Assembly (NCBI GenBank): GCA_964016885.1
Contig: OZ024749.1
Location: 5,022,001 to 5,086,000 of the forward strand
Length of the DNA: 64,000 nucleotides
From: Eledone cirrhosa
Taxonomy: Eukaryota
Direction: 5' to 3'
The translations under genes and the position numbers were made by a program. Each line of letters begins with the position of its first letter. Position 1 is the first letter of the stretch. The notes under the pieces are model-generated. The model worked only from the letters and a program-made list of their open reading frames with translations, searched no databases and had not been told where the DNA came from. Of the stretch, positions 6,035 to 60,945 are shown one piece after another.

Positions 6035-6125
<91 letters not shown>

Positions 6126-6128
<3 letters not shown>

Positions 6129-6335
6129 AAAATGTTCAAGACCCCGGCGGCAGAGCTCAAGGCGTTTCGACGGCTTTTTCTGTCAAGAAATATTTTAGTC
6201 CAGAAATAGCCGTCGAAACGGCTTGAGCTCTGCCGTCGGGGTCTTGAAAATATTCGTATTACCCACTCTACTACCCTAAGTATTGAGTACTCTGGTTCGT
6301 CATGGTCCATCTGGTTCCTTACCACAACTCATTCG

Positions 6336-6374
<39 letters not shown>

Positions 6375-6478
6375 TATATATATATAACGAAGGAACCAGA
6401 TGGCCTATAAAGCATATATTTTTGTCCAGAATTAGCCGTCGAAACGGCTTCAGCTCAGCCGGCGGGGTCCTACTTGTT

Positions 6479-6480
<2 letters not shown>
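6126..6480. repeat. Palindromic dispersed repeat fragments in (TA)n (probable PLE pLTR tips); related copy at ~54490-54610
   Basis: 6137-6246 is a hairpin (aagaccccggcggcagagctcaag...cttgagctctgccgtcggggtctt). The motif gagctc(a/t)gccg(t/g)cggggtc recurs at ~6450 and ~54505. Confidence 0.65.
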
Positions 6481-6528
<48 letters not shown>

Positions 6529-6778: not shown

Positions 6779-6820
<42 letters not shown>

Positions 6821-6839
6821 CAAATAACGAAACGAAATT

Positions 6840-9800
6840 AAGCGTCAGTCATACAAAAGTGAGTTACAAACGAAGCGAAATTTAATTTCGTTTCGTTATT
6901 TGTTTTTATCGTCTCCGTTGAACCGGTACTTACTCACACTCTATGCAAATTAGTCTGCCCACTACTAATGTTCATAGAAAAAGCATATAACGATATGTGC
7001 TTTTACGATTCTCTAGAGAGGCCGGAAGATAGGTAAATATTGCTGATGAGTTGTAACAACAACGAAACTAGTTCAATATTCCTTGTCTGGCTTTCTGGAG
7101 AATAGAGGAAAGGTGTTTCCTCAAAAACCAGTATGACTCTAAAAACCGGTTTGTCTGTGTGTTTACATACAGAATAGCTGGCCACTCACAGTAAAGTGAC
7201 CAGTGAAAAAACTTTATAAAAAAAAAAAAACTTGGTACATCTACATATGTATACGTGTGTGTATTCATATACATACTAGTATTTCAGTATACATATATGG
7301 ATGTACATCTTTAACTTAATTGTTTAAGCGTCAGTCATACAAAAGTGAGTTACAAACGAAGCGAAATTTAATTTCGTTTCGTTATTTGTTTTTATCGTCT
7401 CCGTTGAACCGGTACTTACTCACACTCTATGCAAATTAGTCTGCCCACTACTAATGTTCATAGAAAAAGCATATAACGATATGTGCTTTTACGATTCTCT
7501 AGAGAGGCCGGAAGATAGGTAAATATTGCTGATGAGTTGTAACAACAACGAAACTAGTTCAATATTCCTTGTCTGGCTTTCTGGAGAATAGAGGAAAGGT
7601 GTTTCCTCAAAAACCAGTATGACTCTAAAAACCGGTTTGTCTGTGTGTTTACATACAGAATAGCTGGCCACTCACAGTAAAGTGACCAGTGAAAAAACTT
7701 TATAAAAAAAAAAAAAACTTGGTACATCTACATATGTATACGTGTGTGTATTCATATACATACTAGTATTTCAGTATACATATATGGATGTACATCTTTA
7801 ACTTAATTGTTTAAGCGTCAGTCATACAAAAGTGAGTTACAAACGAAGCGAAATTTAATTTCGTTTCGTTATTTGTTTTTATCGTCTCCGTTGAACCGGT
7901 ACTTACTCACACTCTATGCAAATTAGTCTGCCCACTACTAATGTTCATAGAAAAAGCATATAACGATATGTGCTTTTACGATTCTCTAGAGAGGCCGGAA
8001 GATAGGTAAATATTGCTGATGAGTTGTAACAACAACGAAACTAGTTCAATATTCCTTGTCTGGCTTTCTGGAGAATAGAGGAAAGGTGTTTCCTCAAAAA
8101 CCAGTATGACTCTAAAAACCGGTTTGTCTGTGTGTTTACATACAGAATAGCTGGCCACTCACAGTAAAGTGACCAGTGAAAAAACTTTATAAAAAAAAAA
8201 AAACTTGGTACATCTACATATGTATACGTGTGTGTATTCATATACATACTAGTATTTCAGTATACATATATGGATGTACATCTTTAACTTAATTGTTTAA
8301 GCGTCAGTCATACAAAAGTGAGTTACAAACGAAGCGAAATTTAATTTCGTTTCGTTATTTGTTTTTATCGTCTCCGTTGAACCGGTACTTACTCACACTC
8401 TATGCAAATTAGTCTGCCCACTACTAATGTTCATAGAAAAAGCATATAACGATATGTGCTTTTACGATTCTCTAGAGAGGCCGGAAGATAGGTAAATATT
8501 GCTGATGAGTTGTAACAACAACGAAACTAGTTCAATATTCCTTGTCTGGCTTTCTGGAGAATAGAGGAAAGGTGTTTCCTCAAAAACCAGTATGACTCTA
8601 AAAACCGGTTTGTCTGTGTGTTTACATACAGAATAGCTGGCCACTCACAGTAAAGTGACCAGTGAAAAAACTTTATAAAAAAAAAAAAACTTGGTACATC
8701 TACATATGTATACGTGTGTGTATTCATATACATACTAGTATTTCAGTATACATATATGGATGTACATCTTTAACTTAATTGTTTAAGCGTCAGTCATACA
8801 AAAGTGAGTTACAAACGAAGCGAAATTTAATTTCGTTTCGTTATTTGTTTTTATCGTCTCCGTTGAACCGGTACTTACTCACACTCTATGCAAATTAGTC
8901 TGCCCACTACTAATGTTCATAGAAAAAGCATATAATGATATGTGCTTTTACGATTCTCTAGAGAGGCCGGAAGATAGGTAAATATTGCTGATGAGTTGTA
9001 ACAACAACGAAACTAGTTCAATATTCCTTGTCTGGCTTTCTGGAGAATAGAGGAAAGGTGTTTCCTCAAAAACCAGTATGACTCTAAAAACCGGTTTGTC
9101 TGTGTGTTTACATACAGAATAGCTGGCCACTCACAGTAAAGTGACCAGTGAAAAAACTTTATAAAAAAAAAAAAACTTGGTACATCTACATATGTATACG
9201 TGTGTGTATTCATATACATACTAGTATTTCAGTATACATATATGGATGTACATCTTTAACTTAATTGTTTAAGCGTCAGTCATACAAAAGTGAGTTACAA
9301 ACGAAGCGAAATTTAATTTCGTTTCGTTATTTGTTTTTATCGTCTCCGTTGAACCGGTACTTACTCACACTCTATGCAAATTAGTCTGCCCACTACTAAT
9401 GTTCATAGAAAAAGCATATAACGATATGTGCTTTTACGATTCTCTAGAGAGGCCGGAAGATAGGTAAATATTGCTGATGAGTTGTAACAACAACGAAACT
9501 AGTTCAATATTCCTTGTCTGGCTTTCTGGAGAATAGAGGAAAGGTGTTTCCTCAAAAACCAGTATGACTCTAAAAACCGGTTTGTCTGTGTGTTTACATA
9601 CAGAATAGCTGGCCACTCACAGTAAAGTGACCAGTGAAAAAACTTTATAAAAAAAAAAAAACTTGGTACATCTACATATGTATACGTGTGTGTATTCATA
9701 TACATACTAGTATTTCAGTATACATATATGGATGTACATCTTTAACTTAATTGTTTAAGCGTCAGTCATACAAAAGTGAGTTACAAACGAAGCGAAATTT

Positions 9801-12800
9801 AATTTCGTTTCGTTATTTGTTTTTATCGTCTCCGTTGAACCGGTACTTACTCACACTCTATGCAAATTAGTCTGCCCACTACTAATGTTCATAGAAAAAG
9901 CATATAACGATATGTGCTTTTACGATTCTCTAGAGAGGCCGGAAGATAGGTAAATATTGCTGATGAGTTGTAACAACAACGAAACTAGTTCAATATTCCT
10001 TGTCTGGCTTTCTGGAGAATAGAGGAAAGGTGTTTCCTCAAAAACCAGTATGACTCTAAAAACCGGTTTGTCTGTGTGTTTACATACAGAATAGCTGGCC
10101 ACTCACAGTAAAGTGACCAGTGAAAAAACTTTATAAAAAAAAAAAAACTTGGTACATCTACATATGTATACGTGTGTGTATTCATATACATACTAGTATT
10201 TCAGTATACATATATGGATGTACATCTTTAACTTAATTGTTTAAGCGTCAGTCATACAAAAGTGAGTTACAAACGAAGCGAAATTTAATTTCGTTTCGTT
10301 ATTTGTTTTTATCGTCTCCGTTGAACCGGTACTTACTCACACTCTATGCAAATTAGTCTGCCCACTACTAATGTTCATAGAAAAAGCATATAACGATATG
10401 TGCTTTTACGATTCTCTAGAGAGGCCGGAAGATAGGTAAATATTGCTGATGAGTTGTAACAACAACGAAACTAGTTCAATATTCCTTGTCTGGCTTTCTG
10501 GAGAATAGAGGAAAGGTGTTTCCTCAAAAACCAGTATGACTCTAAAAACCGGTTTGTCTGTGTGTTTACATACAGAATAGCTGGCCACTCACAGTAAAGT
10601 GACCAGTGAAAAAACTTTATAAAAAAAAAAAAACTTGGTACATCTACATATGTATACGTGTGTGTATTCATATACATACTAGTATTTCAGTATACATATA
10701 TGGATGTACATCTTTAACTTAATTGTTTAAGCGTCAGTCATACAAAAGTGAGTTACAAACGAAGCGAAATTTAATTTCGTTTCGTTATTTGTTTTTATCG
10801 TCTCCGTTGAACCGGTACTTACTCACACTCTATGCAAATTAGTCTGCCCACTACTAATGTTCATAGAAAAAGCATATAACGATATGTGCTTTTACGATTC
10901 TCTAGAGAGGCCGGAAGATAGGTAAATATTGCTGATGAGTTGTAACAACAACGAAACTAGTTCAATATTCCTTGTCTGGCTTTCTGGAGAATAGAGGAAA
11001 GGTGTTTCCTCAAAAACCAGTATGACTCTAAAAACCGGTTTGTCTGTGTGTTTACATACAGAATAGCTGGCCACTCACAGTAAAGTGACCAGTGAAAAAA
11101 CTTTATAAAAAAAAAAAAACTTGGTACATCTACATATGTATACGTGTGTGTATTCATATACATACTAGTATTTCAGTATACATATATGGATGTACATCTT
11201 TAACTTAATTGTTTAAGCGTCAGTCATACAAAAGTGAGTTACAAACGAAGCGAAATTTAATTTCGTTTCGTTATTTGTTTTTATCGTCTCCGTTGAACCG
11301 GTACTTACTCACACTCTATGCAAATTAGTCTGCCCACTACTAATGTTCATAGAAAAAGCATATAACGATATGTGCTTTTACGATTCTCTAGAGAGGCCGG
11401 AAGATAGGTAAATATTGCTGATGAGTTGTAACAACAACGAAACTAGTTCAATATTCCTTGTCTGGCTTTCTGGAGAATAGAGGAAAGGTGTTTCCTCAAA
11501 AACCAGTATGACTCTAAAAACCGGTTTGTCTGTGTGTTTACATACAGAATAGCTGGCCACTCACAGTAAAGTGACCAGTGAAAAAACTTTATAAAAAAAA
11601 AAAAAACTTGGTACATCTACATATGTATACGTGTGTGTATTCATATACATACTAGTATTTCAGTATACATATATGGATGTACATCTTTAACTTAATTGTT
11701 TAAGCGTCAGTCATACAAAAGTGAGTTACAAACGAAGCGAAATTTAATTTCGTTTCGTTATTTGTTTTTATCGTCTCCGTTGAACCGGTACTTACTCACA
11801 CTCTATGCAAATTAGTCTGCCCACTACTAATGTTCATAGAAAAAGCATATAACGATATGTGCTTTTACGATTCTCTAGAGAGGCCGGAAGATAGGTAAAT
11901 ATTGCTGATGAGTTGTAACAACAACGAAACTAGTTCAATATTCCTTGTCTGGCTTTCTGGAGAATAGAGGAAAGGTGTTTCCTCAAAAACCAGTATGACT
12001 CTAAAAACCGGTTTGTCTGTGTGTTTACATACAGAATAGCTGGCCACTCACAGTAAAGTGACCAGTGAAAAAACTTTATAAAAAAAAAAAAACTTGGTAC
12101 ATCTACATATGTATACGTGTGTGTATTCATATACATACTAGTATTTCAGTATACATATATGGATGTACATCTTTAACTTAATTGTTTAAGCGTCAGTCAT
12201 ACAAAAGTGAGTTACAAACGAAGCGAAATTTAATTTCGTTTCGTTATTTGTTTTTATCGTCTCCGTTGAACCGGTACTTACTCACACTCTATGCAAATTA
12301 GTCTGCCCACTACTAATGTTCATAGAAAAAGCATATAACGATATGTGCTTTTACGATTCTCTAGAGAGGCCGGAAGATAGGTAAATATTGCTGATGAGTT
12401 GTAACAACAACGAAACTAGTTCAATATTCCTTGTCTGGCTTTCTGGAGAATAGAGGAAAGGTGTTTCCTCAAAAACCAGTATGACTCTAAAAACCGGTTT
12501 GTCTGTGTGTTTACATACAGAATAGCTGGCCACTCACAGTAAAGTGACCAGTGAAAAAACTTTATAAAAAAAAAAAAACTTGGTACATCTACATATGTAT
12601 ACGTGTGTGTATTCATATACATACTAGTATTTCAGTATACATATATGGATGTACATCTTTAACTTAATTGTTTAAGCGTCAGTCATACAAAAGTGAGTTA
12701 CAAACGAAGCGAAATTTAATTTCGTTTCGTTATTTGTTTTTATCGTCTCCGTTGAACCGGTACTTACTCACACTCTATGCAAATTAGTCTGCCCACTACT

Positions 12801-15800
12801 AATGTTCATAGAAAAAGCATATAACGATATGTGCTTTTACGATTCTCTAGAGAGGCCGGAAGATAGGTAAATATTGCTGATGAGTTGTAACAACAACGAA
12901 ACTAGTTCAATATTCCTTGTCTGGCTTTCTGGAGAATAGAGGAAAGGTGTTTCCTCAAAAACCAGTATGACTCTAAAAACCGGTTTGTCTGTGTGTTTAC
13001 ATACAGAATAGCTGGCCACTCACAGTAAAGTGACCAGTGAAAAAACTTTATAAAAAAAAAAAAACTTGGTACATCTACATATGTATACGTGTGTGTATTC
13101 ATATACATACTAGTATTTCAGTATACATATATGGATGTACATCTTTAACTTAATTGTTTAAGCGTCAGTCATACAAAAGTGAGTTACAAACGAAGCGAAA
13201 TTTAATTTCGTTTCGTTATTTGTTTTTATCGTCTCCGTTGAACCGGTACTTACTCACACTCTATGCAAATTAGTCTGCCCACTACTAATGTTCATAGAAA
13301 AAGCATATAACGATATGTGCTTTTACGATTCTCTAGAGAGGCCGGAAGATAGGTAAATATTGCTGATGAGTTGTAACAACAACGAAACTAGTTCAATATT
13401 CCTTGTCTGGCTTTCTGGAGAATAGAGGAAAGGTGTTTCCTCAAAAACCAGTATGACTCTAAAAACCGGTTTGTCTGTGTGTTTACATACAGAATAGCTG
13501 GCCACTCACAGTAAAGTGACCAGTGAAAAAACTTTATAAAAAAAAAAAAACTTGGTACATCTACATATGTATACGTGTGTGTATTCATATACATACTAGT
13601 ATTTCAGTATACATATATGGATGTACATCTTTAACTTAATTGTTTAAGCGTCAGTCATACAAAAGTGAGTTACAAACGAAGCGAAATTTAATTTCGTTTC
13701 GTTATTTGTTTTTATCGTCTCCGTTGAACCGGTACTTACTCACACTCTATGCAAATTAGTCTGCCCACTACTAATGTTCATAGAAAAAGCATATAACGAT
13801 ATGTGCTTTTACGATTCTCTAGAGAGGCCGGAAGATAGGTAAATATTGCTGATGAGTTGTAACAACAACGAAACTAGTTCAATATTCCTTGTCTGGCTTT
13901 CTGGAGAATAGAGGAAAGGTGTTTCCTCAAAAACCAGTATGACTCTAAAAACCGGTTTGTCTGTGTGTTTACATACAGAATAGCTGGCCACTCACAGTAA
14001 AGTGACCAGTGAAAAAACTTTATAAAAAAAAAAAAACTTGGTACATCTACATATGTATACGTGTGTGTATTCATATACATACTAGTATTTCAGTATACAT
14101 ATATGGATGTACATCTTTAACTTAATTGTTTAAGCGTCAGTCATACAAAAGTGAGTTACAAACGAAGCGAAATTTAATTTCGTTTCGTTATTTGTTTTTA
14201 TCGTCTCCGTTGAACCGGTACTTACTCACACTCTATGCAAATTAGTCTGCCCACTACTAATGTTCATAGAAAAAGCATATAACGATATGTGCTTTTACGA
14301 TTCTCTAGAGAGGCCGGAAGATAGGTAAATATTGCTGATGAGTTGTAACAACAACGAAACTAGTTCAATATTCCTTGTCTGGCTTTCTGGAGAATAGAGG
14401 AAAGGTGTTTCCTCAAAAACCAGTATGACTCTAAAAACCGGTTTGTCTGTGTGTTTACATACAGAATAGCTGGCCACTCACAGTAAAGTGACCAGTGAAA
14501 AAACTTTATAAAAAAAAAAAAACTTGGTACATCTACATATGTATACGTGTGTGTATTCATATACATACTAGTATTTCAGTATACATATATGGATGTACAT
14601 CTTTAACTTAATTGTTTAAGCGTCAGTCATACAAAAGTGAGTTACAAACGAAGCGAAATTTAATTTCGTTTCGTTATTTGTTTTTATCGTCTCCGTTGAA
14701 CCGGTACTTACTCACACTCTATGCAAATTAGTCTGCCCACTACTAATGTTCATAGAAAAAGCATATAACGATATGTGCTTTTACGATTCTCTAGAGAGGC
14801 CGGAAGATAGGTAAATATTGCTGATGAGTTGTAACAACAACGAAACTAGTTCAATATTCCTTGTCTGGCTTTCTGGAGAATAGAGGAAAGGTGTTTCCTC
14901 AAAAACCAGTATGACTCTAAAAACCGGTTTGTCTGTGTGTTTACATACAGAATAGCTGGCCACTCACAGTAAAGTGACCAGTGAAAAAACTTTATAAAAA
15001 AAAAAAAACTTGGTACATCTACATATGTATACGTGTGTGTATTCATATACATACTAGTATTTCAGTATACATATATGGATGTACATCTTTAACTTAATTG
15101 TTTAAGCGTCAGTCATACAAAAGTGAGTTACAAACGAAGCGAAATTTAATTTCGTTTCGTTATTTGTTTTTATCGTCTCCGTTGAACCGGTACTTACTCA
15201 CACTCTATGCAAATTAGTCTGCCCACTACTAATGTTCATAGAAAAAGCATATAACGATATGTGCTTTTACGATTCTCTAGAGAGGCCGGAAGATAGGTAA
15301 ATATTGCTGATGAGTTGTAACAACAACGAAACTAGTTCAATATTCCTTGTCTGGCTTTCTGGAGAATAGAGGAAAGGTGTTTCCTCAAAAACCAGTATGA
15401 CTCTAAAAACCGGTTTGTCTGTGTGTTTACATACAGAATAGCTGGCCACTCACAGTAAAGTGACCAGTGAAAAAACTTTATAAAAAAAAAAAAACTTGGT
15501 ACATCTACATATGTATACGTGTGTGTATTCATATACATACTAGTATTTCAGTATACATATATGGATGTACATCTTTAACTTAATTGTTTAAGCGTCAGTC
15601 ATACAAAAGTGAGTTACAAACGAAGCGAAATTTAATTTCGTTTCGTTATTTGTTTTTATCGTCTCCGTTGAACCGGTACTTACTCACACTCTATGCAAAT
15701 TAGTCTGCCCACTACTAATGTTCATAGAAAAAGCATATAACGATATGTGCTTTTACGATTCTCTAGAGAGGCCGGAAGATAGGTAAATATTGCTGATGAG

Positions 15801-18800
15801 TTGTAACAACAACGAAACTAGTTCAATATTCCTTGTCTGGCTTTCTGGAGAATAGAGGAAAGGTGTTTCCTCAAAAACCAGTATGACTCTAAAAACCGGT
15901 TTGTCTGTGTGTTTACATACAGAATAGCTGGCCACTCACAGTAAAGTGACCAGTGAAAAAACTTTATAAAAAAAAAAAAACTTGGTACATCTACATATGT
16001 ATACGTGTGTGTATTCATATACATACTAGTATTTCAGTATACATATATGGATGTACATCTTTAACTTAATTGTTTAAGCGTCAGTCATACAAAAGTGAGT
16101 TACAAACGAAGCGAAATTTAATTTCGTTTCGTTATTTGTTTTTATCGTCTCCGTTGAACCGGTACTTACTCACACTCTATGCAAATTAGTCTGCCCACTA
16201 CTAATGTTCATAGAAAAAGCATATAACGATATGTGCTTTTACGATTCTCTAGAGAGGCCGGAAGATAGGTAAATATTGCTGATGAGTTGTAACAACAACG
16301 AAACTAGTTCAATATTCCTTGTCTGGCTTTCTGGTGAATAGAGGAAAGGTGTTTCCTCAAAAACCAGTATGACTCTAAAAACCGGTTTGTCTGTGTGTTT
16401 ACATACAGAATAGCTGGCCACTCACAGTAAAGTGACCAGTGAAAAAACTTTATAAAAAAAAAAAAACTTGGTACATCTACATATGTATACGTGTGTGTAT
16501 TCATATACATACTAGTATTTCAGTATACATATATGGATGTACATCTTTAACTTAATTGTTTAAGCGTCAGTCATACAAAAGTGAGTTACAAACGAAGCGA
16601 AATTTAATTTCGTTTCGTTATTTGTTTTTATCGTCTCCGTTGAACCGGTACTTACTCACACTCTATGCAAATTAGTCTGCCCACTACTAATGTTCATAGA
16701 AAAAGCATATAACGATATGTGCTTTTACGATTCTCTAGAGAGGCCGGAAGATAGGTAAATATTGCTGATGAGTTGTAACAACAACGAAACTAGTTCAATA
16801 TTCCTTGTCTGGCTTTCTGGAGAATAGAGGAAAGGTGTTTCCTCAAAAACCAGTATGACTCTAAAAACCGGTTTGTCTGTGTGTTTACATACAGAATAGC
16901 TGGCCACTCACAGTAAAGTGACCAGTGAAAAAACTTTATAAAAAAAAAAAAAACTTGGTACATCTACATATGTATACGTGTGTGTATTCATATACATACT
17001 AGTATTTCAGTATACATATATGGATGTACATCTTTAACTTAATTGTTTAAGCGTCAGTCATACAAAAGTGAGTTACAAACGAAGCGAAATTTAATTTCGT
17101 TTCGTTATTTGTTTTTATCGTCTCCGTTGAACCGGTACTTACTCACACTCTATGCAAATTAGTCTGCCCACTACTAATGTTCATAGAAAAAGCATATAAC
17201 GATATGTGCTTTTACGATTCTCTAGAGAGGCCGGAAGATAGGTAAATATTGCTGATGAGTTGTAACAACAACGAAACTAGTTCAATATTCCTTGTCTGGC
17301 TTTCTGGAGAATAGAGGAAAGGTGTTTCCTCAAAAACCAGTATGACTCTAAAAACCGGTTTGTCTGTGTGTTTACATACAGAATAGCTGGCCACTCACAG
17401 TAAAGTGACCAGTGAAAAAACTTTATAAAAAAAAAAAAACTTGGTACATCTACATATGTATACGTGTGTGTATTCATATACATACTAGTATTTCAGTATA
17501 CATATATGGATGTACATCTTTAACTTAATTGTTTAAGCGTCAGTCATACAAAAGTGAGTTACAAACGAAGCGAAATTTAATTTCGTTTCGTTATTTGTTT
17601 TTATCGTCTCCGTTGAACCGGTACTTACTCACACTCTATGCAAATTAGTCTGCCCACTACTAATGTTCATAGAAAAAGCATATAACGATATGTGCTTTTA
17701 CGATTCTCTAGAGAGGCCGGAAGATAGGTAAATATTGCTGATGAGTTGTAACAACAACGAAACTAGTTCAATATTCCTTGTCTGGCTTTCTGGAGAATAG
17801 AGGAAAGGTGTTTCCTCAAAAACCAGTATGACTCTAAAAACCGGTTTGTCTGTGTGTTTACATACAGAATAGCTGGCCACTCACAGTAAAGTGACCAGTG
17901 AAAAAACTTTATAAAAAAAAAAAAACTTGGTACATCTACATATGTATACGTGTGTGTATTCATATACATACTAGTATTTCAGTATACATATATGGATGTA
18001 CATCTTTAACTTAATTGTTTAAGCGTCAGTCATACAAAAGTGAGTTACAAACGAAGCGAAATTTAATTTCGTTTCGTTATTTGTTTTTATCGTCTCCGTT
18101 GAACCGGTACTTACTCACACTCTATGCAAATTAGTCTGCCCACTACTAATGTTCATAGAAAAAGCATATAACGATATGTGCTTTTACGATTCTCTAGAGA
18201 GGCCGGAAGATAGGTAAATATTGCTGATGAGTTGTAACAACAACGAAACTAGTTCAATATTCCTTGTCTGGCTTTCTGGAGAATAGAGGAAAGGTGTTTC
18301 CTCAAAAACCAGTATGACTCTAAAAACCGGTTTGTCTGTGTGTTTACATACAGAATAGCTGGCCACTCACAGTAAAGTGACCAGTGAAAAAACTTTATAA
18401 AAAAAAAAAAACTTGGTACATCTACATATGTATACGTGTGTGTATTCATATACATACTAGTATTTCAGTATACATATATGGATGTACATCTTTAACTTAA
18501 TTGTTTAAGCGTCAGTCATACAAAAGTGAGTTACAAACGAAGCGAAATTTAATTTCGTTTCGTTATTTGTTTTTATCGTCTCCGTTGAACCGGTACTTAC
18601 TCACACTCTATGCAAATTAGTCTGCCCACTACTAATGTTCATAGAAAAAGCATATAACGATATGTGCTTTTACGATTCTCTAGAGAGGCCGGAAGATAGG
18701 TAAATATTGCTGATGAGTTGTAACAACAACGAAACTAGTTCAATATTCCTTGTCTGGCTTTCTGGAGAATAGAGGAAAGGTGTTTCCTCAAAAACCAGTA

Positions 18801-21422
18801 TGACTCTAAAAACCGGTTTGTCTGTGTGTTTACATACAGAATAGCTGGCCACTCACAGTAAAGTGACCAGTGAAAAAACTTTATAAAAAAAAAAAAACTT
18901 GGTACATCTACATATGGATACGTGTGTGTATTCATATACATACTAGTATTTCAGTATACATATATGGATGTACATCTTTAACTTAATTGTTTAAGCGTCA
19001 GTCATACAAAAGTGAGTTACAAACGAAGCGAAATTTAATTTCGTTTCGTTATTTGTTTTTATCGTCTCCGTTGAACCGGTACTTACTCACACTCTATGCA
19101 AATTAGTCTGCCCACTACTAATGTTCATAGAAAAAGCATATAACGATATGTGCTTTTACGATTCTCTAGAGAGGCCGGAAGATAGGTAAATATTGCTGAT
19201 GAGTTGTAACAACAACGAAACTAGTTCAATATTCCTTGTCTGGCTTTCTGGAGAATAGAGGAAAGGTGTTTCCTCAAAAACCAGTATGACTCTAAAAACC
19301 GGTTTGTCTGTGTGTTTACATACAGAATAGCTGGCCACTCACAGTAAAGTGACCAGTGAAAAAACTTTATAAAAAAAAAAAAACTTGGTACATCTACATA
19401 TGTATACGTGTGTGTATTCATATACATACTAGTATTTCAGTATACATATATGGATGTACATCTTTAACTTAATTGTTTAAGCGTCAGTCATACAAAAGTG
19501 AGTTACAAACGAAGCGAAATTTAATTTCGTTTCGTTATTTGTTTTTATCGTCTCCGTTGAACCGGTACTTACTCACACTCTATGCAAATTAGTCTGCCCA
19601 CTACTAATGTTCATAGAAAAAGCATATAACGATATGTGCTTTTACGATTCTCTAGAGAGGCCGGAAGATAGGTAAATATTGCTGATGAGTTGTAACAACA
19701 ACGAAACTAGTTCAATATTCCTTGTCTGGCTTTCTGGAGAATAGAGGAAAGGTGTTTCCTCAAAAACCAGTATGACTCTAAAAACCGGTTTGTCTGTGTG
19801 TTTACATACAGAATAGCTGGCCACTCACAGTAAAGTGACCAGTGAAAAAACTTTATAAAAAAAAAAAAACTTGGTACATCTACATATGTATACGTGTGTG
19901 TATTCATATACATACTAGTATTTCAGTATACATATATGGATGTACATCTTTAACTTAATTGTTTAAGCGTCAGTCATACAAAAGTGAGTTACAAACGAAG
20001 CGAAATTTAATTTCGTTTCGTTATTTGTTTTTATCGTCTCCGTTGAACCGGTACTTACTCACACTCTATGCAAATTAGTCTGCCCACTACTAATGTTCAT
20101 AGAAAAAGCATATAACGATATGTGCTTTTACGATTCTCTAGAGAGGCCGGAAGATAGGTAAATATTGCTGATGAGTTGTAACAACAACGAAACTAGTTCA
20201 ATATTCCTTGTCTGGCTTTCTGGAGAATAGAGGAAAGGTGTTTCCTCAAAAACCAGTATGACTCTAAAAACCGGTTTGTCTGTGTGTTTACATACAGAAT
20301 AGCTGGCCACTCACAGTAAAGTGACCAGTGAAAAAACTTTATAAAAAAAAAAAAACTTGGTACATCTACATATGTATACGTGTGTGTATTCATATACATA
20401 CTAGTATTTCAGTATACATATATGGATGTACATCTTTAACTTAATTGTTTAAGCGTCAGTCATACAAAAGTGAGTTACAAACGAAGCGAAATTTAATTTC
20501 GTTTCGTTATTTGTTTTTATCGTCTCCGTTGAACCGGTACTTACTCACACTCTATGCAAATTAGTCTGCCCACTACTAATGTTCATAGAAAAAGCATATA
20601 ACGATATGTGCTTTTACGATTCTCTAGAGAGGCCGGAAGATAGGTAAATATTGCTGATGAGTTGTAACAACAACGAAACTAGTTCAATATTCCTTGTCTG
20701 GCTTTCTGGAGAATAGAGGAAAGGTGTTTCCTCAAAAACCAGTATGACTCTAAAAACCGGTTTGTCTGTGTGTTTACATACAGAATAGCTGGCCACTCAC
20801 AGTAAAGTGACCAGTGAAAAAACTTTATAAAAAAAAAAAAACTTGGTACATCTACATATGTATACGTGTGTGTATTCATATACATACTAGTATTTCAGTA
20901 TACATATATGGATGTACATCTTTAACTTAATTGTTTAAGCGTCAGTCATACAAAAGTGAGTTACAAACGAAGCGAAATTTAATTTCGTTTCGTTATTTGT
21001 TTTTATCGTCTCCGTTGAACCGGTACTTACTCACACTCTATGCAAATTAGTCTGCCCACTACTAATGTTCATAGAAAAAGCATATAACGATATGTGCTTT
21101 TACGATTCTCTAGAGAGGCCGGAAGATAGGTAAATATTGCTGATGAGTTGTAACAACAACGAAACTAGTTCAATATTCCTTGTCTGGCTTTCTGGAGAAT
21201 AGAGGAAAGGTGTTTCCTCAAAAACCAGTATGACTCTAAAAACCGGTTTGTCTGTGTGTTTACATACAGAATAGCTGGCCACTCACAGTAAAGTGACCAG
21301 TGAAAAAACTTTATAAAAAAAAAAAAACTTGGTACATCTACATATGTATACGTGTGTGTATTCATATACATACTAGTATTTCAGTATACATATATGGATG
21401 TACATCTTTAACTTAATTGTTT
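6840..21422 (+). repeat. Tandem array of 30 x 486-bp hammerhead-containing units (retrozyme-like satellite)
   Basis: Period 486 (aagcgtcag at 6840, 7326, ...). 14583 bp = 30x486 + 3 extra A's (units 2, 10, 21). Only three substitutions noticed (8936, 16335, 18917). Flanked by (TA)n on both sides. Confidence 0.97.
7036..7080 (+). ncRNA. Type I hammerhead ribozyme of the array unit (first of 30; last at 21133-21177)
   Basis: Helix I aatattg/caatatt (7 bp), CTGATGA 7043-7049, helix II gttg-taacaa-caac, GAAA 7064-7067, palindromic CTAG, GUU cleavage triplet 7071-7073. Confidence 0.9.
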
Positions 21423-21443
21423 ATATATATATATATATACACA

Positions 21444-21603
<160 letters not shown>

Positions 21604-23294: not shown

Positions 23295-24509
<1,215 letters not shown>

Positions 24510-25130: not shown

Positions 25131-27821
25131 AGTTGCATTTATCTTGCTTTATGTTCATACGAGTTATCACCAAGTCATAACCAGTGACCTCAAGAGACAA
25201 CAAGGTCCGCTATGTTCAAGAAAGAACATACATATTCACACATGCATCTTTAGTGTTTAGACTTGTGATGTACTTATATTGACAGAATCTTCCTTAGTAT
25301 ATGGGCAGTTCCCATTAGTACTATCTTTTGTATTTCTCCTATACGCGGGTTTCCTGGGATTTGCGATAAGTAGTCATTAGACCCCTTAGGTATCATTCCC
25401 AGAGCGCCTACAACCACTGGTATTGTTTTAGTTCTCAATTTCCACATTTTTCCAATTTCTATCTCCAGGTCCTTATAGTTGCTCAATTTTTCAAATGTTT
25501 TTATAGATACATTCTTGTCTATTGGAACAGACATATCAATTAGCAGGCATACCCTCTTTTTAAAGTCCTTCAATATTATATCAGGTCTATTTGCATCTAT
25601 TTTTCGGTCTGTTTGGATGCTAAAGTTCCACTAGATTGAGATGTGATCTTTTTCAAGTATGGGAGGTGGTTGATGCTCCCACCAATTCTTTTGATGGGGC
25701 AGGTCAAAATGCTTACACATTATCCAATGTATGTATTGTGCAGCTCTGTCATGCCTGTTTAGGTATTCGGTTCGAGCTATAGGACTGCACATTGAAATTA
25801 TATGGTCAATGGTCTCTGGTTGTTTTTTTCATACACGGCATAATGGGCTGCACCCATTTTTTATTATGTTGGCTTGGTAATTTTTTGTTGGCAGACACTG
25901 ATCTTGTGCCGATATAATCAGTCCTTCAGTCTCCGATTTCAGTCCAGAGGATACCAACCACTGAGGGGTTAAAGTTTTGTCAACATCAGGATTGTTAGCT
26001 CGCTCTGGGTATTTTCCATACAGAGGCTTTTCTTGCCATTTCTTAGTCAGTTTCTGTAGCAGTTCTTTCTTTGCAGTTACTTTTACCTGCTTTGCTTTTC
26101 CTGTGTTTTCCATTTCAGCAGTAAATGGGACTTCTGAAATGTGTAGTCCATTACTGTATCTTTGTGCATCTTTTGTAATGGAATATGATCTTTTGATGCT
26201 TTCGTGTTTCAAAACGAGTTTGATCATCCAATCATGTGATTCCCTTAGATATGTAGATAATCCAATTGTTGCAGTTTTCAACGCAATGTCTAACTGGATT
26301 AACCCACGTCCTCCTTCTTTCCTAGGGAGATATATTATATCTATATCTGCCTTAGGGTGATGCATTCTGTGCATGGTTAAGAATTTTCGAATTTTTGTAT
26401 CGAGCCTACGGATCTCTGTGCTTGACCAGTTGATGACATTGTAACTGTAGGTTACTACTGGTATGGCAAGCGTGTTTATGGCATCGATCCTATTCCTTGC
26501 ATTCAATTCCGTTCTTAAGATTGCTCTTACTCTGCGGTAACATTCCTTCCTTATCCTTTCCTTCATTGTCGAGTGCTTGATTCCGTCTCCTTCACAAACA
26601 CCTAGATATTTGTAAGTTTTTTCTTGATCAAGTTCTCTTATCACGTTCCCCCGATCAAGATTAATGTCTGAACTCTTCAGCAGCTTTCCTCTGGTGAACG
26701 TTGCTTTGGCGCATTTATCTAGTCCAAACTCCATTTTAATGTCATCACTGAACTGATTCATCATTTTTTGCAAATAATTTCAGGTCATCCATGTAGAACA
26801 GGTGATTAATGGTTTTGTCATAGACTTTATATCCATGTTTTGTTTCATTGAGCATTTTACTTAATGGTATAAGTGCGATGCAGAATAAAAGCGGTGATAA
26901 AGAGTCATCCTGAAAAATTCCACAATTAATATTAACTTCTCCAGCTTCCAGTGATTTTGTTTCACTATTCAAAAGGAGTGTCGTTTTCCATGTCTTCATA
27001 CTGAATGACAAAAACCTCCTGACAACGGGGGATATTTTGAAAATCTCTAAACATTTTTCAATCCAACTGTGTGGCAAACTATCGAATGCTTTTTTATAAT
27101 CTATCCAAGCAATCGATAGATTTTTGTGTCTATTATGACAATCTTCCAGTATCATTTTGTTAACCAGAAGCTGATCCTTACAGCCATATGAGCCTCGTTT
27201 ACACCCTTTCTGCTCAATGGGAAATAGATCATTTGTTATCAGGTGGTCATATGTGTATTCAGTTAGGACTGATGTTAAAATTTTATACATTGTGGTCAAG
27301 CAAGTTATCGGTCTGTAATTTTTGGGATTGTTTGTCTCATCATTCTTCGGAAGCAGGAATGTAATGCCGTTAACTAGCCATGATGGTATCTTTTCTGGCT
27401 CCTTAATTTTTTCATTGTAAAGTTGGGCTAACAGCTCATGAGACTCTGTGAAGCCATTTATCCAAAAGTTTTGTATTTTGTCTTTTCCTGGGGATTTCCA
27501 TTTGCTGGTTTTTCTTAGAGCCAAGCGCAACTGTTCAACTGTTATATTTTCCCATGTTTGTTCCTCAAGGTGAGCTGTATCTTTCATTTGTCTGTCTATC
27601 CATGGGGCATGTATGTTATGAACTTTTTCTTCGGCCCAGATCTTTTCCCAGAATTCTTGCACTTCCTCCTTGGGTGGTATTGATTTAGCAGTTATTTTTG
27701 ACTTACCAATTTTTCTGTAGAAGTTTCTTTGGTTGTTTTTGAACATATTATTGTCCTTATAGAATCTAGATCGTTTTTCAAAGCGCCTTATACGAGCAGC
27801 TTTGGCCGACACTTTTTGCTG
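25129..27821 (-). mobile_element. 5'-truncated Dong/R4-clade LINE (RT + CCHC + RLE endonuclease) inserted in (TAA)n
   Basis: RT motifs NYRPITCL, WIDYKKAFDS, GIFQDDSLSPLLF, HLFYMDDLKL, YKYLG. Zinc knuckle starts at CRV. RLE region IDMSVP..EKLSNY..PVVVGALG. (AAT)n tail at ~25096-25128 and (ATT)n upstream. Confidence 0.93.
25274..27812 (-). pseudogene. Frameshifted RT-RLE polyprotein (ORF pieces 26745-27812, 25829-26773, 25274-25573)
   Basis: Consecutive ORF-track fragments give RT, thumb and RLE domains, with frameshift/stop lesions. Confidence 0.9.
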
Positions 27822-28469
27822 GATTATTATTATTATTATTATTATTATAATAATGATAATAATTATTATTATTAGTAGTAGTATTTTTATTTCCCAACTA
27901 GCGGACCATTGAGAGTGAGTTAAACAGTTTTTTCACTTTTTTATTGTGTTTTTGTTTTGATATGCGCTCTATTTTCCTGCTATTAATTTTGTTTCTCACT
28001 CTTTTAAGTTGTGAAATAGACTGGTTCTCTACGCACGCGGCTGACACATTCCAGCTCGCTACTATATTGCTCGATAATGGGTAATCGCATCTAAAGTACG
28101 TTATAGGTTCTTGGAACTACCATTGTTACCATCGCTTTCCTCTAGCCACGGGGCTTGGAGGCATAAGCCGAATGCTACCATTCTATTATACATCGATGTG
28201 CGACTGCTATTTCTAATAGCCATCTTTTCACCTCTTATTAATTTGTGTGTGAGAGACGTTGGCTGAGAGCTTTTGACGGGTACGAAAGGATTAGTTTTCT
28301 CGTCTCGCGCCACCACGTAAAATGTGTAAATCGGTGGCTAGTCGAGAGATAGAGTCGTATTGGATGCCAGTTGCTTATCACTTTACCGCGTCAGTCGTCA
28401 TAAACAGTCATGACCGACATGGGCTGGTGTTTGGATTCTGTCGAGCGATTGGTTATTGATTAAGCCGTA

Positions 28470-28788: not shown

Positions 28789-29672
28789 GAGATGTGTCAG
28801 AAAAGTTCCAGGACTGATGTCACAAAAGATTTATTTCAAACCCTAACTTCACACTAAGAGTTCTCTCCTTCAACCTAATCCCCCTGGGGTATGTAACTGT
28901 AATCTTAGCTCTCTGCAGCGACCAAACTTTTTTCTTCCTAATTTTATATACATGTCCTCTGTTTCAGGTCGTCAAGCAATGAGCACAGAGCAACGAACAA
29001 ACTTGAAGTTTCTGGTACGGTTGGAGAAAACTCCGTCAGAAGCACTGGGATTGCTGCAGCAAGTGTATGGAGATGAGATGATGCCACGCTCACGTGTTTT
29101 TGAGTGGTGCAAGATGATACCAGGAGCCGAAGGCCCTCAACAACCAGGACTGAGGTGAACGTTGAGCGCGTGAGGAGGATGATGCGTAGCGATCGTCGGC
29201 TGACTGTTCGACTGATGGCAAATGAGCTGGGCACAAATCGGGACAGCTTCTGGAAGATTCTCACTGAAGGTTTGGACATGCAGAAAGTCTGCGCGAAGAT
29301 GGTGCCAAAACTGCTGAACGATGACCAGAAGGGTCGACGCATGCAAGTATCCCAGGACATCCTCGAGCGTCTTGAAACCGAACCAGACTTGCTAAGGACA
29401 GTCATCACCGGTGATGAGTCATGGAACTTCGAGTACGACCCGGAGGGGAACCGTTTTGAAGAAGTGGACGATATCAAAAAGGCCGTGACGACGGAACTGC
29501 GGAGGATCCCGGAAGAATTATTCCAGGAGTGCATGCATGCAGGGCAGAAAAGGATGTAAAAGTGCATTAGACTCCAGGAGGATTACTTTGAATGATAGAA
29601 CTCTTAGTGAGAAGTTTGGGTTTGAAATAAATCTTTTGTGACATCAGTCCTGGAACTTTTCTGAAACACCTC

Positions 29673-57124: not shown

Positions 57125-57659
57125 TTAAGAAACTTCCTTATAGACTATATTTTGGGTTTTCTCGCGAGTTTCCAAAGCAAATAGGTTATGCCGGCTCCCC
57201 ACTTGAGAGCAGCCAACATATAGTTGACCATGGGAGAAGCACGGTTCTTCGAAATTAAGCCCTACGACCGTCTGACCCTGTGATTTGTTAATCGACATGG
57301 CGAAACTGAACCGGAGAGGGAATTGCAGCCTTCTGAATGTGAAAGGAATGTCTTTACCGGATGGAATGATAGGTATCCTTGGTACGAATAAATGATTCCC
57401 CCTTACCACATCCTGTAAGTATTGTTGCCTCAATAACATGAGGCATCGCCTTTTGGACGACCAGACGCGTGCCTTCGGGAAGCCTTTGGGCTTCCAAATT
57501 CCTGAGGAGCATGACAGGGGCACATTTCTTAAGTCGCAGTAAGTGTGGTGGCAATCCGGGAGGGTCTAGGGAGTTAAGAAATGATGTCGGGTAATTAACA
57601 CCTTCGTCCAGATCTGCCATATAGTCAAGGGACTTGTAGCCATGCAGGTTTCCAGGCAA
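57125..57659 (-). pseudogene. Helitron PIF1-family helicase C-terminal fragment (frameshifted)
   Basis: ORFs 57354-57659 and 57125-57523 carry SF1B motifs IV-VI. Confidence 0.9.
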
Positions 57660-57769
57660 GCACAGCGTAGTCGGAGGAGGGGTCGTAGTTAAAGGCCTTC
57701 AACAGCCATCGTGAATTGCAAGTCCTAGAAATGCCACCTAATGATGATCGCTGCTGTTCATCTAGCAGA

Positions 57770-58170: not shown

Positions 58171-58742
58171 CAGCATCTTTGCTCTGTCGATATTCACGCC
58201 AACTGTCACCCTCCTCCGCTCATGCAGCTGCCGTCTGAACAACATTCTATGAGAGCCTGATCGCAGTTGCATTTACATCTCTTCGGAGAGACGCCTTCGC
58301 TTAGCCCTACTTACATCATTAGATAATCGACCAATGAAAGTTCTTTTCTTGGGGGGCATTGTTTTTAGAAAATTAACCAGGGAGAAAGATAAATAATGGA
58401 CAAATAAGGTTTAAGTAAGCAAATTTAAACACGGATATGAATTGTGAAAAAAATGTGATAAATCTATGGGGTCTGAGAAAGTGGGTATGTTTTGCAAGAT
58501 TTTGTGTACCAATCAAATTTCAGGTTTTAAGGTAGGGGAAACGCAGCGGACGGACTACCTGTCATAAAGGAAATTAAATAGTGTGGCTCCAGTGGTGGGT
58601 ATATAATGGGCATTATGTTTTTTCAGTTCGAACATAGCAATAAGTAAGTACTAACCATTGAAAGGATACAGGCAAAAATGGCCGAAAAATCACAGCATGA
58701 TAAACTGGAACCTTATGAACATAAACGCATTAACTAAACATC

Positions 58743-60945
58743 TCGCTGGCGGTTTCATCATGACAATGGACTCGGTGGTCAACTGGATTGGTTCCACCCG
58801 CGACACTAGTCGTCCTACATAGCCCCACAGGTCGGTAACGCCCGGGCAGTGTACAAATGCGTGCACGACGGTTTCCACGTTGCGCATACATCTTGGACAG
58901 ATCATTTTCGAAGCGTCTCTGCTCGGGCGCCCGTGTCTGTAGAGCTTGCCTCGAACTGGTAGAGCTCCTTGGTAGCACTGCCAGGCCAGGGACTTTTGGA
59001 AGTTGTCCATTGTTCCTGGGCGGAAGATCCTACCGAACAGACTGGCCAGTTCGTCCTCCTCTACGCCTAGAGTTTCTCCGAGCGCGTCGTCGCACTTGCT
59101 GCGGACCAACCTTCTATAGAAGGTCGAAGTGGAGTCTCCACTGATCGCCGGGTCCGTTTGCCAGAGGACTGTGAGCGCCTGACCACATTCGATGTGCCAG
59201 TCACCCATTTTCTTCGGTCTTTGCTTGACTCAGGCTGCAGCTCGGTCAGCGAGCCGAGTCGTGGGAAGGCTCGCCACACGAACGGGGGCACACACCGGTT
59301 GTCCGGTGAGGAATACGTGGAGGTGCCGCAGCCTGAGCGCGTGTTTGCGCATCGTCAGCCACAGCATCCCTAACCCTCTGTTTGAAGGGTGTTGGCAGCA
59401 GATGGATCTTCTCACCAAAGGATCCCGTTTCTTCAAAAGGAATTGAAAGAGCGCGCGCTCCATTTTGGTGAGCATTTTAGCTGGACAAAGCACAACAGTC
59501 AAGCGGTATTAGATGACGGACGCTATAAAAGTGTTCGCCACCTCCGGTCGACCTTTCAAGGATAGTTTGCACTCGGCCCACTGCTGGGTGAGCGCAAACA
59601 CCTTGGCCGTCAGCTCGTTGCAGTTCTTCTCCACCTGGAGGTCCGGACCAAACCAGACCCCGAGCAGCTTTACATGTCCTTCCGTCCAGCGTCCGAAGAC
59701 GCCATCGGAAGGCATCGGTTTGCCTCTCCACGTTCCGAGTTGCAAACCGACGGATTGGTCCCGGTTCAGCTTCGCTCCTGTGAAACTTTCGTATTCCTCC
59801 AGTAAGGTGCCGACATCCCCGATTTGTGAGGGGCTCGACACCATTACTGTCACGTCGTCGGCGCCGGCCGACGGCGCTTTTCGCTGTCCCGGTTCCAAAG
59901 GGAAGCCCTGCAATTGCTCCAACTTCCGCAGTAGTGGCTCGAGCGTCAGTACGTACAGAAGGGAGGAGAGAGGGCACCCTTGTCGGATGGATCGCGGGAT
60001 ATGGAACGGCTCCGAGAGGTAGCCGTTCATCTTGACCCTTGAGCAGATGATGTTGCTGTGCATTGCAGCAATCCAGCCCCTGAACACGGGTCCGAAGCCT
60101 ACCGCCTCGCGCACCGCATCCAGGTAACGATGGTCAACCCTATCGAAAGCTTTAGACTGATCCAAGTTGATCAGAGCCCCACCTAAACCGGGGTTACACC
60201 CTACCCTCACTATGATGTATCGCATGAGGTGGAGGTTATCGTGTATGGACCTAGTCGGGATTGCGCATGTCTGCGCTTCTCCCACCTGATTTTCGACGAC
60301 AAACACCAGCCTCTTTACCAACACCTTGGCCAAAATCTGTAACTCCTAGTTTAGCAGAGTTATGGGCCGGAAGTTGCCTATGTCATCCCCCTTATTCTCG
60401 TCCTTCCTGACTAACGTGTATACGCCCTTGGTCACAGAACTGGTAATTCTCCCATTCTGCTGCTGGCTGCTTCCATGAGACCGGAGAACAAGTCCGGCAT
60501 TGCTACGTAAAATTCGTAGGGCAGACCGTCGAGGTCTGGAGATTTGCGTTTGCCGCATTGGCTCAGCGCGTCCCCTATCTGATCGGCTGAAATCGGCCTT
60601 TGGCAGAACTTCGTCTCACCGTCCGACAGTCGCCGCACGCCGTCGAGGTATGGACCGAAACCCACAACCCCTCCCGGCGTGACGCCCTGACCGGACAGTT
60701 GAGCAAAGTGCCGCTGAAAGGCCGCGCACATCTGCTTCGGCTCACGTATTACGCGTCCGTCTTGGTCCTTCAAAAACCGAATCGTGGACTTGTTACCACT
60801 TTTCGCCTCCGTCACTCGGGCCCAGCTAACAGCTTTGTCTCCCTCGTTTCCCAGAGCACGTATCTTGCTCCTGACAACGCAGCCCCTTCGTGCTTTGTGT
60901 CGAAGAACTTTCCAAGGCCGTTCTTGTCGCTAACAAGCTGGTTAC
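58743..60945 (-). mobile_element. Tx1/L1-clade LINE ORF2 fragment (RT + zf-RVT), decayed and truncated at both ends
   Basis: SPDLDGLPYEFY, NFRPITLLN, LDQSKAFDRVDH, SIRQGCPLSSLLY, ADD, KLLGVWFG, GGLG-like RGLG, CPRC...ETVVHAFVHC. Confidence 0.92.

Follow-up and report, generated by a model that had tools for sequence, protein, structure and literature searches.

For metazoan type I hammerheads, published work (PMC4209133, PMC7229834) takes cleavage as a dimer, by way of a palindromic helix III, as the default, and through these two papers we have accepted the statement of an earlier note on this DNA that the minimal hammerheads of Penelope-like elements (PLEs) and those of newts cleave as dimers. 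The axolotl ribozyme HHR_Amex1 has a helix III of the same class as the one described below, a single pair capped by a palindromic tetraloop; its monomer is reported as 6% cleaved in 1 h and its dimer as much more so (PMC7229834). Copying of a circle by a borrowed reverse transcriptase (RT) has been hypothesised earlier for retrozymes (PMC7229834), and local DNA amplification has also been proposed as an origin of arrays (bioRxiv 10.64898/2026.07.22.740005). PLE insertions, for their part, are described as having a one-ended tail (PMC8557442), which has been tied to two internal RT start sites (PMC11167929).

The array in the window and its hammerhead

The window, by which we mean the whole 64,000-nucleotide stretch of Eledone cirrhosa DNA that was analysed, contains 30 tandem copies of a 486-bp unit at 6838..21423 (+), the outer end of the array lying at a site here called S1 (Table 1). 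Twenty-three of the 30 units are identical, while three differ by one extra A and three by one substitution. The unit has a GC content of about 34%, and the ORF list of the window shows no ORF of at least 100 amino acids in the array, and thus none for an RT with GIY-YIG as found in an autonomous PLE. Every unit carries about 20 A-rich bases (7206-7225 in the first copy) in excess of the usual 466-470-bp unit. No target-site duplication is discernible in the flanks, which are (TA)n. The outer end of the inverted arm at 6814..6841 (−) lies at a second site, S2, and a 4-nt TTAA overlap forms its junction with the array; the 72-nt tail (6838..6909) is predicted to contain an internal hairpin. Judged from these sequence features, namely a non-coding tandem repeat of a few hundred bp with less than 50% GC and an intact hammerhead, the array represents a single non-LTR retrozyme insertion, a known kind of element.

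Table 1. Features at the left end of the array, with the first copy of the unit, and the two flanks (window positions)
Feature	Position	Strand	Basis
(TA)n microsatellite, left flank; inferred insertion target	6782..6813	.	Other family insertions also adjoin (TA)n
Short inverted arm, reverse complement of unit 45-72	6814..6841	-	Exact 28-nt match
72-nt tail between S1 (unit ~484-486) and S2 (unit ~72), first copy	6838..6909	+	End classes
Hammerhead with long extended helix I (predicted), first copy	7008..7103	+	Fold
Helix I, 5′ strand	7036..7042	+	Preceding GUA bulge aligns with bulge of Rfam HH9 model
Catalytic core C3-A9 (CUGAUGA)	7043..7049	+	Rfam HH9 alignment
Helix II and loop 2	7050..7063	+	Compensatory change 7051/7062 in other subfamilies
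Core G12-A15.1 (GAAA)	7064..7067	+	
Helix III palindrome ACUAGU; predicted 6-bp inter-unit helix	7067..7072	+	Folding models
Predicted cleavage site after U17, GUU triplet	7073..7074	+	Hammerhead numbering
Monomer RNA of 486 nt predicted between two cuts; candidate circle	7074..7559	+	Inference; circular fold predicted
(TA)n microsatellite, right flank	21422..21599	.	

Positions in the ribozyme follow the usual hammerhead numbering scheme, in which N7 tolerates change. By its sequence the unit carries a type I hammerhead, with the core CUGANGA...GAAA, helices I and II and an NUH triplet, and this hammerhead is intact and identical in all 30 units; helix II shows a compensatory change between subfamilies. 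An Rfam search at the gathering level gave no match. The HH9 model matches below it (E 6e-8, 37.7 bits, gathering score 52), and aligns with the core, loop 2 and the bulge of helix I, helix III being short; the model expects a longer helix III.

Window 7064-7073 reads GAAACTAGTT, within which 7066-7073 reads AACTAGTT. The palindrome that the earlier note saw in the latter is real, and it recurs unchanged in every one of the 30 units; the same note placed only CUAG between GAAA and the cut, and CUAG is indeed present, but GAAA is followed by CUAG-U-U, so that the tetraloop sits between A15.1 (7067) and U16.1 (7072), with U17 at 7073. Palindromes make up 8 of the 486 8-mers and 15 of the 486 6-mers of the unit. 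As a bare palindrome this one is unremarkable; it is meaningful through its position as helix III of a type I hammerhead.

Elsewhere in the window are what we take, from their motifs, to be decayed mariner-like transposase fragments (23379-23885 and 28847-29582) and, presumably, two non-LTR reverse-transcriptase remnants and a helicase-like fragment (25274-27932, 58690-60929 and 57125-57698, all on the minus strand).

Helix III in three families and the mode of cleavage

A generic hammerhead core pattern has 12,759 matches in the genome, while its reversed control has 14. About 9,300 hammerhead copies belong to the family of the window array (family A) genome-wide, N17 being U in 6,125 and another base in 3,155 (controls 0), and the unit is found on many contigs; from its sequence distribution, this is a dispersed, multi-locus, that is mobile, family. 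Among 100 non-U matches listed, N17 is C in 98 and G in two (loop and N17 tallies here and below are hand counts of the matches listed). Of the proposed 8-mer palindrome, the hexamer ACUAGU (7067-7072) is conserved but the full 8-mer is not, since N17 varies. The suggestion that the GUU triplet could tune processing finds no support here: GUU and GUC subfamilies have both spread by the thousand, and a sister family uses GUA. According to PMC9217987, the triplet alone does not determine cleavage efficiency. At locus L163 two copies of one arm have G17 and are predicted to be inactive, and at L102 A17 is insertion-wide.

The sister family with GUA (family B), located via a shared end motif, is likewise tandem and is 66-68% identical over about 250 nt. 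Its pattern finds 11,542 copies, with the CUAG loop in 90 of 100 matches listed, and it retains ACUAGU with different helices I and II. Family C is older and mostly single-copy, its kinship resting on shared motifs read by eye; it has 206 copies, and its palindrome is ACAUGU (in 80 of 100 matches listed). On this sequence comparison, the constant feature is a self-complementary hexamer rather than the 8-mer or GUU. One family B array (L217, C1:319892000-319898500) has units that alternate CAUG and CUAG loops, with a higher-order period of about 980 bp; its neighbouring units could not form a matched helix III, which makes it a natural test case.

Sequencing runs X1-X20, labelled as one wastewater metagenome and 16 coded organisms, also contain the family or parts of it; the depths range from about 5 to several hundred thousand, and relatives, diet or carry-over are possible origins. 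No RNA run stands among the 24 runs listed for it. The contigs of eight runs examined, which are of unknown kind and bear on presence and variants only, list no change at 7067-7072. Closed unit-length contigs occur in runs X6, X9 and X12 and are compatible equally with tandem DNA and with circles.

By analogy and from folding models, we consider it likely that the hammerhead is cleaved as a double hammerhead through ACUAGU; the dimer proposal is partly supported, conservation adding weakly to these two lines. In the nearest-neighbour model, closing helix III within a monomer costs +6.1 kcal/mol and the ACUAGU duplex yields −4.8, so that by predicted energies helix III is weak and self-complementary, as in double hammerheads. 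The probability of the A15.1-U16.1 pair is about zero in seven of seven folded copies. When the unit of the window is folded alone, the UAG of the palindrome is instead predicted to pair with core C3-U4-G5 (probability 0.72-0.92). For a two-unit transcript, the predicted energies, which leave out tertiary contacts and kinetics, are −223.5 for the free (off) fold, −215.9 for one active monomer, −214.3 for the double hammerhead and −208.3 for two active monomers. According to these models the double hammerhead is cheaper per site, yet not for the first cut, where a single active monomer is slightly lower in energy; the double fold also requires the swapping of a helix I of about 30 bp. An 8-bp duplex extended by A14-U17 was rejected as the functional unit: although stabler (−6.6), it would occupy core bases, and it is absent from a third of the copies.

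Loop 3 variants are rare family-wide (20 and 51 copies), as are variants at the control position N7 (18), and raw within-family counts thus did not separate the loop from N7 as a neutral control. We have surveyed insertions, namely the loci of loop variants and 10 N7 loci, one very long array being represented by two 10-kb parts. Changes that break self-pairing of the loop are insertion-wide in none of 22 multi-unit cases (three single-unit loci are uninformative), as against a rough expectation of 3-6 that assumes 1,000-2,000 multi-unit insertions (P 0.04-0.002, overdispersed). The wobble-compatible variant CUGG is insertion-wide in five of six cases. Selection for wobble pairs was dropped as the main reading of these arrays, since all five have other A>G changes, and insertion-wide CUGG is better read as editing than as selection. 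The swap from CUAG (families A and B) to CAUG (family C) is essentially one event between families; within family B a swap occurs at only two loci, in one of them alternating with CUAG units. Pairing of loop 3 with the core is predicted for family C too, so that conservation of the loop could serve self-inhibition.

This last point leads to the most serious alternative, in which the same element spreads through circles but each hammerhead cuts alone, perhaps helped by a contact between helix I and loop 2 or by a bound protein, and the loop is kept to switch the core off. The predicted folds give it some weight, with the single active fold not disfavoured relative to the double one, the long local helix I forming first and loop 3 pairing with the core in families A, B and C; moreover, coral and mussel retrozyme monomers are reported to cleave well (PMC7229834), and an anole PLE hammerhead to cleave only with protein (PMC11167929). 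On the other hand, a helix III of one A-U pair over a tetraloop belongs to a class described as poor at monomer cleavage (PMC7229834), and the two different loops are both palindromes. We therefore regard cutting by lone hammerheads as rather unlikely, and keep the double hammerhead as the preferred reading.

Insertion ends, shared variants and the template of the arrays

The tandem arrangement had been put down to dimerisation. Taken alone, dimerisation does not account for it: whatever the mode, two cut sites are required to release a unit, and marks of Penelope-like reverse transcription from one monomeric template are seen in the arrays. We have analysed 112 insertions, which together contain 472 copies with a hammerhead; most come from the beginning of contig C1, the others being best BLAST hits and loci selected for their variants. 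Their outer ends fall at S1 or S2, 72 nt apart, and adjoin (TA)n. Among the 70 two-arm insertions, 58 could be classified at both ends, and all 58 have one S1 and one S2 end; the others comprise 12 two-arm insertions with one unclassified end, 40 one-arm and two complex ones. The window array obeys the same rule, its 28-nt inverted arm ending at S2 and the array at S1. The TA target, inverted arm and one-ended tail make up, as far as sequence can tell, the anatomy of a PLE insertion.

An autonomous PLE of Hydra-clade type with its own hammerhead and two-site ends is present in the same genome (L051, L066), and the same ends were seen by eye in three of three two-arm loci of its copies (L051, L052, L054). 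The Hydra label comes from the RWR, DKT, CxCX5C, CxxC and CxH motifs, compared by eye with PMC8557442 and not from a tree; Pfam gave no match in three PLE ORF pieces. No homology of the retrozyme unit to a PLE pLTR was detected in the one Hydra-type family compared. The ORFs of the Hydra-type PLE lie at L066:4289-6997 (−) and L051:2897-4939 (+), and its hammerhead (L066, L051) combines a GUU triplet with a nearly palindromic helix III, ACAUUGU. More PLE-like ORF fragments, of other families, occur beside (TA)n at L030, L075, L076 and L091, where another abundant hammerhead-like core motif is seen. In the window itself, another repeat has two small insertions at 6079-6528, both flanked by (TA)n. 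The inverted arms of each seem to have their ends at two different sites, which resembles a second tail system of the PLE type; related sequence is found beside L014 and L075.

A variant was called insertion-wide when present in all covering copies (at least two) of an insertion and absent from its nearest relatives, and the spectra exclude N7, both loop positions, the A-run and the edges of gaps. On the hammerhead strand, the 145 insertion-wide variants include 78 A>G, 15 T>C, 13 C>T and 13 G>A, as against 42, 43, 55 and 57, respectively, among 399 minority variants (Fisher p 1e-6 for the A>G bias). The bias survives every subset tried: A>G exceeds T>C by 44 to 10 in unselected loci, by 32 to 10 for variants in both arms, and, counted per insertion, by 36 to 11 of 59, or 9 to 1 for insertions with three or more. 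The changes are also clustered, with A>G accounting for nine of ten in L158, eight of eight in L013 and seven of eight in L122 across 14 units. Recurrent sites are unit positions 38, 112, 115, 190, 233 and 241. ADAR editing has clustered, strand-specific A>G as its hallmark (PMC2873906). The neighbours of the changed A's fit such editing only in part: a 3′ G is enriched (29/77, p 1e-4) and a 5′ G barely depleted (10/78 versus 22/142 A's), while invertebrate hyper-editing is reported to favour a 3′ A (PMC5625713). The changed A's are not more paired than other A's in the predicted circle (p 0.26).

Neither RT errors nor the editing of a linear multimer would be the same from unit to unit, so that changes common to all units and both arms point to a single monomer as the source of the whole insertion, in the simplest case a circle that was copied again and again. 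The evidence thus points to an A-to-I-edited circular monomer on which a Penelope-like enzyme would have carried out repeated reverse transcription. Insertion-wide A>G is absent from the window array, whose only such variant is one T>G that L003 has as well, and for this reason its own edited circle is proposed by way of the family.

Could the arrays be tandem simply because activity needs dimers, the repeats being built and kept at the DNA level by unequal crossover after a single insertion, along the route proposed in bioRxiv 10.64898/2026.07.22.740005? Periodic minority variants in the long arrays L056, L100 and L126 agree with this, and DNA-level expansion does add later to long arrays. 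As the origin of the tandems, however, it is improbable, given the fixed S1 and S2 ends on opposite arms, the A>G sets common to both inverted arms, minority variants without A>G excess, and unselected insertions of which 17 of 72 have one hammerhead (median 2). More doubtful still is the idea that hammerhead cleavage is incidental, a PLE enzyme copying uncleaved linear multimers and the A>G variants stemming from inherited alleles or polarisation error. Hammerhead mutants are reported to have left insertion by the PLE PAc unaffected in vitro (PMC11167929), and some shared variants are clearly lineage-level; but editing of linear multimers predicts a minority A>G excess, which is absent (42 versus 43), mis-polarisation would raise T>C equally, and the helix II covariation and a core kept over three families also count against the idea. 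Copying of one circular monomer thus stays our preferred account.

Proposed mechanism and comparison with described systems

Taken together, the sequence, copy numbers, end sites and variant spectra, all observed directly, lead us to favour, as the likely course, a tandem retrozyme cut as a double hammerhead via ACUAGU, whose array is written by a Penelope-like RT circling one RNA monomer. A multimeric transcript would be made, in which a lone hammerhead is predicted to fold off, the UAG of the palindrome pairing with core C3-U4-G5. Two hammerheads would then swap helix I strands and pair ACUAGU with ACUAGU, and two cuts would free one unit with its ends held together by its own helix I; pairing and release, taken jointly, are reasonably probable. 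The released unit would be ligated at unit position 236/237 into a circle, in which the lone hammerhead stays off and some A's may be edited to I. A Penelope-like RT/endonuclease, for which the co-resident Hydra-clade elements would be the best candidate, would nick (TA)n and prime one strand at S1, the other at S2; it would go round the circle a variable number of times as it copies, and the two resulting arms would join head to head. We hold this nicking, two-site priming and circle copying with good confidence, the pattern being observed and the enzyme and template inferred.

In its fullest form, towards which we lean only slightly, the genome would preserve the retrozyme cycle as a fossil record: each array would be the copy of one A-to-I-edited RNA circle made by a dimeric Penelope-like enzyme whose priming is invariably at S1 for one DNA strand and at S2 for the second, and the helix III palindrome would act as a switch with two states, cutting when paired with a neighbour and protecting the circle when paired with its own catalytic core. 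The element would work like a non-autonomous PLE passenger, its expression, circles and cleavage being predicted.

The element and the dimer idea are already known, and what appears new is the genomic evidence for the mechanism: in a literature search by title and start of abstract, with most subscription papers outside its scope, these patterns were not reported for retrozymes. Strand-specific shared A>G changes and the strict rule of one S1 and one S2 end offer a genome-only test of how arrays arise. From these patterns come also a candidate enzyme and two priming sites that an in vitro assay could use, as well as constraints on the way in which PLE enzymes produce their inverted arms and one-ended tails.

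Among described systems, the nearest are the non-LTR retrozymes of metazoans (Cervera and de la Pena 2020, PMC7229834), in particular axolotl Rtz_331/HHR_Amex1 and newt satellite 2. The Eledone family shares with them tandem non-coding repeats of low GC without LTRs, one type I hammerhead each, a one-pair helix III closed off by a tetraloop that is a palindrome, and coexistence with PLEs. It differs in a unit of 466-487 bp, slightly above the 150-450 bp given in PMC7229834, in GUU as the triplet of its commonest subfamily, and in its (TA)n insertion, inverted arms and two fixed end sites. With the Hydra-clade PLEs (Craig et al. 2021, PMC8557442) and PAc (Frangieh et al. 2024, PMC11167929) it has in common the (TA)n target, 5′ truncation, an inverted 5′ arm, a one-ended tail set by two RT start sites and a type I hammerhead; in contrast to these, the retrozyme has no ORF, its tail is 72 nt instead of 30-40, and its arrays reach at least 30 full turns. 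A palindromic, unstable helix III and the dimer model link it to the minimal PLE hammerheads (PMC4209133), from which it is set apart by a canonical architecture that combines a helix I of 6-7 bp with a bulge and a long extension.
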